Shown one piece after another: positions 14,357-14,684 of a stretch of 64,000 nucleotides of DNA. Both the position numbers and the translations under genes were made by a program. The stretch is from NCBI RefSeq assembly GCF_056746865.1, contig NZ_CM163382.1; one strand, 5' to 3'. A model generated the notes under the pieces. It was not told the origin of the DNA and did no database searches. It saw nothing but the letters and a program-made list of their open reading frames with translations. How positions within the stretch are numbered: the first letter of the stretch is position 1; each line of letters starts with the position of its first letter.

Positions 14357-14584
14357 ATGAAAACCGCAAAAGAGTACAGCGATACCGCAAAACGTGAGGT
14401 CAGCGTCGATGTCGATGCCCTGCTGGCGGCGATCAATGAAATTAGCGAAAGCGAAGTTCATCGCAGCCAGAACGATTCTGAACACGTTAGCGTCGATGGA
14501 CGTGAATATCATACATGGCGTGAATTGGCGGATGCCTTCGAACTGGATATTCATGACTTCAGCGTCTCTGAAGTGAATCGTTGA
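14357..14584 (+). CDS. yodD: Small stress protein YodD
   Basis: 75-aa ORF from MKTAKEYSDTAKRE. Confidence 0.85.
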   Translation: MKTAKEYSDTAKREVSVDVDALLAAINEISESEVHRSQNDSEHVSVDGREYHTWRELADAFELDIHDFSVSEVNR

Positions 14585-14595
14585 ATGCACAATAA

Positions 14596-14684
14596 AAAAA
14601 TCCCGACCCTGAGGGGGTCGGGATGAAACTTGCTTAAGCAAGAAGCACTTAAAAAATTCGTTACACCAGGAAATCTGATGTGTT
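14596..14684 (-). ncRNA. dsrA: DsrA small regulatory RNA
   Basis: Minus-strand sequence AACACATCAGATTTCCTGGTGTAACG...CCCGACCCCCTCAGGGTCGGGATTT recognised as DsrA, with terminal hairpin and U-run. Confidence 0.9.

Follow-up and report, generated by a model that had tools for sequence, protein, structure and literature searches.

When two convergent transcripts end at one palindrome, does the same hairpin terminate both of them? The question arises at the junction between yodD and dsrA, the gene for the small RNA DsrA, for which the initial annotation of the DNA analysed here (a stretch of 64,000 nucleotides, referred to throughout as the window) proposed that a single palindrome can terminate both transcripts. 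We asked what each strand carries at this hairpin, where the two RNAs end in vivo, and how the arrangement has fared in related bacteria.

The yodD–dsrA locus

The window is E. coli DNA, base-identical to K-12 MG1655 across yodD–dsrA, and a window position plus 2,010,629 gives the MG1655 position. In the MG1655 annotation yodD (b1953, 2024986–2025213, plus strand) and dsrA (b1954, 2025223–2025313, minus strand) are convergent with a gap of 9 nt and are flanked by rcsA, dsrB and yedP; the same neighbours are present here. A 701-nt region of the locus is found at 95% identity or more in 5341 of 5426 complete E. coli genomes. The single base that separates positions 14300–14760 from MG1655 is at 14730, a G where K-12 has C; it lies at −46, upstream of the DsrA start and just past the −35 hexamer.

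The yodD coding sequence (14357–14584, plus strand; 75 amino acids and a TGA stop) is in the open reading frame listing and is identical to MG1655 b1953. Its product matches the Pfam family DUF2525 (PF10733) with E = 1.6e-33 and 115 bits against a gathering threshold of 27, and an NCBIfam search with YodD gave zero matches. Read directly in the window, the TGA is followed by AATGCACAATAAAAAAATCCCGACCCTGAGGGGGTCGGGATGAAACTTGC. The gene has been described as a small RpoS-dependent stress gene, with a promoter that is strongly RpoS-dependent (bioRxiv 10.1101/2023.11.09.566509). Both genes and their convergent layout are already annotated in K-12 and the locus is a known one, as the initial annotation had it; its identifications of DsrA and of a convergent yodD agree with the Rfam, Pfam and MG1655 evidence.

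Some features of the annotation lie to one side of the question. The RefSeq/PGAP records of E. coli ATCC 8739 (NZ_CP022959.1, L094) and of hits H1–H8, all 100% identical here, are without a dsrA feature and annotate only rcsA, dsrB, yodD and yedP; the curated MG1655 record has dsrA. A 36-codon reading frame with a TTG start, antisense to dsrA (14630–14740, plus strand), was dismissed, as it is without any support. Upstream of yodD, in the dsrB–yodD intergenic region, a weak terminator-like site of five pairs (14254–14269, plus strand; GGCGCGCGCGAGTGCT then GATTTTCTCG) is probably a chance occurrence.

DsrA and its putative promoter

The dsrA gene (14594–14684, minus strand, by the RefSeq extent of the MG1655 ncRNA b1954) contains a match to the Rfam DsrA family RF00014 at 14598–14684 that covers model positions 1–85 of 85 with 102.5 bits against a gathering score of 60 (E = 2.4e-19), and the DsrA assignment thus comes safely through the covariance-model search on which the initial annotation had staked it. 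Between 10 and 20 kb of the window no other Rfam family matches, and of the eight matches in the entire window this one scores highest. The others are the rseX sRNA (97.7 bits), EFASI RNA (95.7 bits) and five tRNAs, four of them with identical scores, located as a group at 23086–23175 (plus), 38401–38530 (minus), 33567–33653 (minus), 34645–34717 (plus), 50127–50199 (minus), 51948–52020 (plus) and 54357–54429 (plus).

DsrA folds into three hairpins with an energy of −31.9 kcal/mol (z = −4.67 relative to shuffles). Stem-loop 1 (14663–14681, minus strand; DsrA nt 4–22), placed by the Rfam structure line and by the fold, lies in the region that we take to pair with the rpoS leader. The stem-loop 2 region (14626–14659, minus strand; DsrA nt 26–59), placed in the same way, holds a 7-bp palindrome at 14629–14642. 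The last stem-loop is a U-tailed Rho-independent terminator, which the scan calls, T7 tail included, on the minus strand. Judging from the identity with K-12 and from the literature, DsrA of this strain would be expected to pair with both the rpoS leader and hns mRNA. That it is a discrete small RNA is indicated by a Term-seq 3′ end with 0.6–0.9 million reads in three conditions, and published rGRIL-seq chimeras of DsrA with rpoS form part of the expression evidence. Set beside DsrA of K-12 (RF00014, b1954), the RNA has the same full-length match, the same neighbours, three stem-loops and a U-tailed terminator, and it differs in nothing; only the upstream base at 14730 is changed.

The hexamers TTGTCA (14717–14712) and TAAGGT (14694–14689), read from the sequence of the minus strand (14689–14717) with a 17-nt spacer and a +1 at 14684, presumably constitute the dsrA promoter; the consensus scan made no call at these hexamers.

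The shared hairpin has a U tract on one side only

The two genes meet at a hairpin (14600–14624, both strands) formed by a 10-bp perfect inverted repeat, ATCCCGACCC / GGGTCGGGAT, whose arms at 14600–14609 and 14615–14624 enclose a 5-nt loop. On the minus strand this is DsrA stem-loop 3, the terminator stem, and on the plus strand it is the 3′-terminal stem-loop of the yodD mRNA. The string CCCGACCCCCTCAGGGTCGGGATTT occurs once in the window, at 14598–14622 on the minus strand, with 0 occurrences expected by chance. It was first described as beginning 12 nt after the yodD stop codon; the hairpin does adjoin the stop, but the string actually lies 13 nt past the last TGA base (14584). Counting from the stop, the annotated DsrA 3′ end, where the T7 run finishes, comes after 9 nt and the stem base after 15 nt. 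The hairpin is in the minimum-energy folds of both strands and is of similar stability in each, at −18.5 kcal/mol in the DsrA sense versus −19.4 kcal/mol in the yodD sense.

On the DsrA side it is a canonical intrinsic terminator, a GC-rich stem (7 of the 10 pairs are G-C in the DsrA sense) followed by U7 (14594–14600, minus strand), and this tract reads as A7 upstream of the hairpin in the yodD mRNA. The stem and U tail of such small RNAs are also their Hfq-binding 3′ module. The plus-strand tail after the stem is GAAACUUG (GAAACTTG, GAAACTTGCT), with no U tract and only two T in the first 8 nt; a T-tail score of the d'Aubenton-Carafa type is 4.93 on the DsrA side versus 0.17 on the yodD side, and the consensus scan calls a terminator on the minus strand only, with no plus-strand call at the hairpin. 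Because this tail is the complement of the DsrA linker between stem-loops 2 and 3, its sequence is constrained by DsrA. A bidirectional intrinsic terminator has a U tract after the stem on both strands, so that its hairpin is flanked by an A tract on one side and a T tract on the other, and here the plus strand has none, although a GC-rich hairpin is present in both transcripts and 3′ ends lie beside it on both strands in vivo. Since the defining U tract is on the DsrA side only, classical bidirectional terminator would be the wrong label for the hairpin in an annotation.

Both RNAs end at the hairpin in vivo

Public Term-seq data already include both 3′ ends, in a curated table by Adams et al. 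2021 (PMC7815308, supplementary file 1) that covers LB OD 0.4, LB OD 2.0 and M63. We verified its register on two tRNA CCA ends, which put the 3′ end at base 51 of the 61 in its sequence column; peak positions may be wrong by a few nucleotides. The DsrA end is at 2025229 (minus strand; window 14600), with 603,756 reads at LB OD 0.4, 887,088 at LB OD 2.0 and 777,985 in M63, and the yodD end, listed as "primary" for yodD and "antisense" for dsrA, is at 2025257 (plus strand; window 14628), with 11,227 reads at LB OD 2.0, 2,463 in M63 and no entry at LB OD 0.4 (PMC7815308). The restriction of the yodD end to stationary phase and minimal medium fits the conditions in which an RpoS-dependent gene is expected to be on. 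By these counts dsrA exceeds yodD 50- to 300-fold.

The yodD mRNA ends in GGGAUGAAA, 4 nt beyond the extended stem, and GAAA (14625–14628, plus strand) is all that separates the stem base from the mRNA 3′ end, with no U tract. As the Term-seq 3′ ends flank the hairpin on both strands, the hairpin delimits both RNAs, in the sense of steady-state 3′ ends, which do not separate termination from processing. Taken together with the annotated DsrA end, they define a region transcribed on both strands (14594–14628), and the 3′ ends of yodD mRNA and DsrA are complementary over about 29–35 nt (14594/14600 to 14628). The main DsrA end (2025229) coincides with the U that directly follows the stem and falls 6 nt before the annotated 2025223; the difference could reflect real heterogeneity of the tail, trimming, or an effect of mapping within a homopolymer.

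In one Hfq-CLASH chimera, RyeA (SraC) is linked to a fragment of yodD-sense RNA at 14568–14640 on the plus strand (PMC7213987, supplementary file 8). This fragment, a single read, takes in the stop codon and the hairpin and reaches 12 nt past the Term-seq end, so some plus-strand RNA extends past 14628, on the evidence of n = 1 read. Mentions of yodD, yedP and dsrA are absent from the SMRT-Cappable-seq supplements, and a literature search found no paper on the yodD/dsrA shared hairpin specifically.

A similar junction between rcsA and dsrB

The rcsA/dsrB junction, 600 nt upstream, is also convergent, with an 11-bp perfect palindrome (13969–13994) between the rcsA stop (13960–13962) and the dsrB stop (14006–14008). 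By Term-seq the dsrB RNA ends at window 13965, which is 4 nt beyond the stem. Further along the dsrB strand, antisense to rcsA, a Rho termination region has been mapped at 2023932 (about window 13303) (PMC7815308). The two junctions have in common a shared palindrome and a U-less 3′ end 4 nt past the stem; they differ in that the rcsA/dsrB palindrome has a U tract on neither side, and in the Rho region mapped downstream on the dsrB strand. REP palindromes between convergent genes have likewise been proposed as dual 3′UTR elements that serve as terminator and/or degradation block (bioRxiv 10.64898/2026.03.23.713779). These share with the 14600–14624 hairpin the idea of one palindrome acting on both convergent transcripts, but the hairpin is no REP; it is a functional sRNA terminator whose sequence is unique in the window.

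The convergent arrangement is conserved in relatives

We collected relatives by scanning GTDB, with one genome for each species, for exact matches to a conserved 5′ segment of DsrA; this gave at least 80 loci. Re-tested with Rfam, 13 of 14 enterobacterial loci scored above the DsrA threshold and two outsiders below it; L011 and L026, both below the threshold, are chance matches in non-enterobacteria without DsrA and were rejected. With E. coli YodD as tblastn query, a convergent homologue lies beside DsrA in 72 loci among the matches listed, and among the listed loci with enough flanking sequence a YodD homologue went undetected by tblastn in L075 only. A long yedP match on the plus strand (from query residue 10 or below to 250 or above) is present in 54 sequences including the window, among the matches listed. 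The position of DsrA downstream of rcsA/dsrB and between yodD and yedP is conserved.

The spacing is conserved as well. The yodD stop lies 6–17 nt from the stem base in 61 of 65 measurable related loci among the matches listed, and the four exceptions have gaps of 28, 38, 130 and 146 nt, of which the two largest are due to a structured, ERIC-like insertion in Buttiauxella. Such conservation of the spacing between stop and stem indicates that the tight convergent packing is ancient. The A run that corresponds to the DsrA U tail is mostly 5–8 nt in relatives; Buttiauxella and Phytobacter have a shorter or interrupted run. Every plus-strand tail reads (C/G/A)A(A/G)CTTGC, and the tail is U-rich in 0 of 65 loci among the matches listed; none of the lineages listed has gained the U tract of a classical bidirectional terminator.

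The Buttiauxella insertion is highly structured, about 115–130 nt long, and lies, in the re-oriented sequences, at about 6344–6470 in B. izardii (L053) and about 382–525 in B. gaviniae (L070). It parts yodD from the DsrA terminator, and these are the only loci among the matches listed in which the two are far apart; we take the insertion to resemble the ERIC consensus. In Pseudescherichia vulneris, Escherichia sp. ESNIH1 and UBA7338 (L008, L020 and L075) the convergent reading frame is 37–45% identical to YodD or is undetected, and the stop codon is still 8–9 nt from the same hairpin. A locus labelled Citrobacter freundii M-21 (L065) has an Atlantibacter-type hairpin (TATCCCGGCGGGGGCGCCGGGATA) and a YodD 65% identical to that of E. 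coli, which suggests that the assembly is mislabelled or mixed.

Wobble pairs in the shared stem favour the yodD strand

A palindrome used on both strands can be asked which of its two RNAs keeps its pairing when the stem changes. Since loop length varies, a MAFFT alignment is unreliable for stem-loops 2 and 3, and stem-loop 3 pairs were obtained by zippering each of 75 hairpins individually (44 distinct sequences), among the matches listed. The stem covaries across the 44 distinct variants. All of its non-Watson-Crick pairs of the transition type are G·T on the plus strand, that is, G·U in the yodD-sense RNA and A·C in DsrA. Such pairs are present at two stem positions in 12 distinct hairpins from 18 of the 75 loci (L004, L006, L012, L027, L032, L036, L037, L040, L045, L046, L048, L050, L056, L066, L068, L071, L074 and L076), and the reverse is present in 0, among the matches listed. 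At stem position 7 the A·C state in DsrA, G·U in the yodD sense, is the natural one in Salmonella/Citrobacter, and within Citrobacter the A-T, G·T and G-C states are all found at this position, which is the classical compensatory route when read on the yodD strand.

The hairpins of the wobble loci are more stable in the yodD sense (−16.5 to −19.6 kcal/mol) than in the DsrA sense (−10.2 to −15.1 kcal/mol). DsrA stem-loop 1, used as an internal control, has the opposite bias, with 98 G·U cells on the DsrA strand and 0 A·C. Parsimony on a yedP tree for a 50-locus subset requires the G·T state to have been gained or lost 6 times or more, and the independent wobble events are probably few, some 5–8. 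A metagenome scan for the counter-class only (G·U in DsrA at stem position 7) returned 12 matches, all of them unrelated terminators and rejected as such, so that 0 were dsrA loci.

The strand bias is suggestive, and only suggestive, of selection on the yodD-sense hairpin itself. It is plausible that a hairpin without U residues to follow it depends wholly on the stability of its stem, and that a U7-tailed terminator tolerates a weaker one. Alternatively, the A·C mismatch itself may be useful to DsrA.

Formation of the yodD 3′ end

How, then, does yodD come to end at this hairpin? With no U tract on the yodD side, the hairpin is most likely not a classical terminator there. We favour, with moderate confidence, the interpretation that on the yodD strand it is a U-less stem-loop that defines the 3′ end in combination with trimming and read-through, for example as a barrier to exonucleases after termination downstream, or as a site at which polymerases pause or collide. 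We infer the following route. As yodD is transcribed the palindrome would fold into a hairpin as stable as that of DsrA, and RNA polymerase would pause at it or read through; polymerase would then stop downstream, whether through Rho or in another way, in the 297 nt of untranslated RNA that precede yedP, and 3′-to-5′ exonucleases would shorten the RNA as far as the stem, which would account for the end of the yodD mRNA seen at steady state, 4 nt after the hairpin.

There is a precedent in Rho-dependent transcripts that end directly after stable stem-loops without U tracts, with mild C>G downstream, and that are trimmed to the protective stem-loop by PNPase or RNase II (Dar & Sorek 2018, PMC6061677). 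The yodD mRNA has in common with this class a 3′ end just past a stable U-less stem-loop and a mild C>G bias downstream, with C/G of 1.4–1.55 in the first ~100 nt beyond the hairpin in the yodD direction. This bias, the 297 nt of untranslated RNA ahead of the yedP start codon at 14882 and the parallel at rcsA/dsrB all fit a route of Rho termination followed by trimming. The likeness is not complete: the Dar & Sorek class (PMC6061677) is without an upstream A tract and yodD has A7, owed to the DsrA U tail on the other strand, and Rho dependence of yodD is a prediction by analogy with it. The bicyclomycin data of Adams et al. (PMC7815308) have no plus-strand Rho region downstream of yodD; they are from exponential phase, when the yodD end is itself uncalled.

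The main rival, which we regard as unlikely, is that the hairpin pauses polymerases arriving from both sides, and that head-on collision together with trailing polymerases releases the yodD RNA just past the hairpin, with no need for Rho or for a U tract. Overlapping bidirectional terminators driven by collision are the model of Ju et al. 2019, as described in bioRxiv 10.1101/2022.10.23.513370 (Wang et al. 2022). Judged by the description given there, the yodD–dsrA junction resembles this class in much of its layout: a convergent pair with one hairpin inside a short doubly transcribed region of 29–35 nt, sharp 3′ ends on both strands, and overlap of those ends across the hairpin (14594/14600–14628). 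The very active transcription of dsrA, 50–300 times yodD by Term-seq, would supply opposing polymerases, and the arrangement is conserved in relatives. The difference lies on the DsrA side. The class, in that description, is unlike an intrinsic terminator in either direction, and the DsrA direction is canonical, a textbook intrinsic terminator; polymerases transcribing dsrA should come off at the U tract without waiting for a collision.

Both remaining explanations are less likely than release by collision. The proposal of the initial annotation, in its strict form, is a true bidirectional intrinsic terminator whose hairpin alone releases polymerase both ways. One part of it stands, in that Term-seq places a single palindrome at both 3′ ends; the terminator role for yodD is doubtful, given the tail score of 0.17 and the minus-only call, and we consider the strict form improbable. 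The yodD-sense hairpin is certainly stable (−19.4 kcal/mol), the end is 4 nt past it, and the compensatory pattern of the stem fits a structure maintained in the yodD-sense RNA. Intrinsic termination, though, usually leaves ends 7–9 nt after the stem and inside a U tract, and 4 nt is short of that; the plus strand has two T in 8 nt and the consensus scan is silent there, a U-rich tail has evolved in no relative among the matches listed, and one read continues past the hairpin. The end at 14628 could also be a by-product unrelated to hairpin function, left inside the overlap when yodD read-through RNA pairs with DsrA and an enzyme such as RNase III cleaves the duplex, but for all the perfect complementarity of the overlap and the large excess of DsrA this is extremely doubtful, as the end is exactly at the base of a stable hairpin, as the same Term-seq data show for the neighbouring dsrB and yedD, and both RNAs are locked in intramolecular hairpins.

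Implications

The preferred reading, in which DsrA is ended by a canonical terminator and yodD by a U-less stem-loop on the opposite strand of the same DNA, leaves the locus an ordinary one save for one small evolutionary oddity; it carries little weight as a discovery, and its value is in precision. A more ambitious interpretation is that the tail-to-tail packing is more than compaction and is a selected feedback circuit running from DsrA through RpoS to yodD and back by way of the overlap. In such a circuit DsrA would raise RpoS, RpoS would switch on yodD, and yodD transcription would run into dsrA; the yodD mRNA, its 3′ end perfectly complementary to the terminator and Hfq-binding module of DsrA, would influence DsrA in its turn, either through transcriptional interference or by titrating it as an antisense RNA, and the evolution of a stem with G·U only in the yodD sense would reflect selection on the yodD-sense RNA. 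We think it very unlikely that the overlap is such a circuit.

What the wobble pattern does hint at is that a neighbouring mRNA can co-opt the terminator of an sRNA and also constrain it. If such co-option were general, it would change how sRNA terminators are read in covariation analyses.
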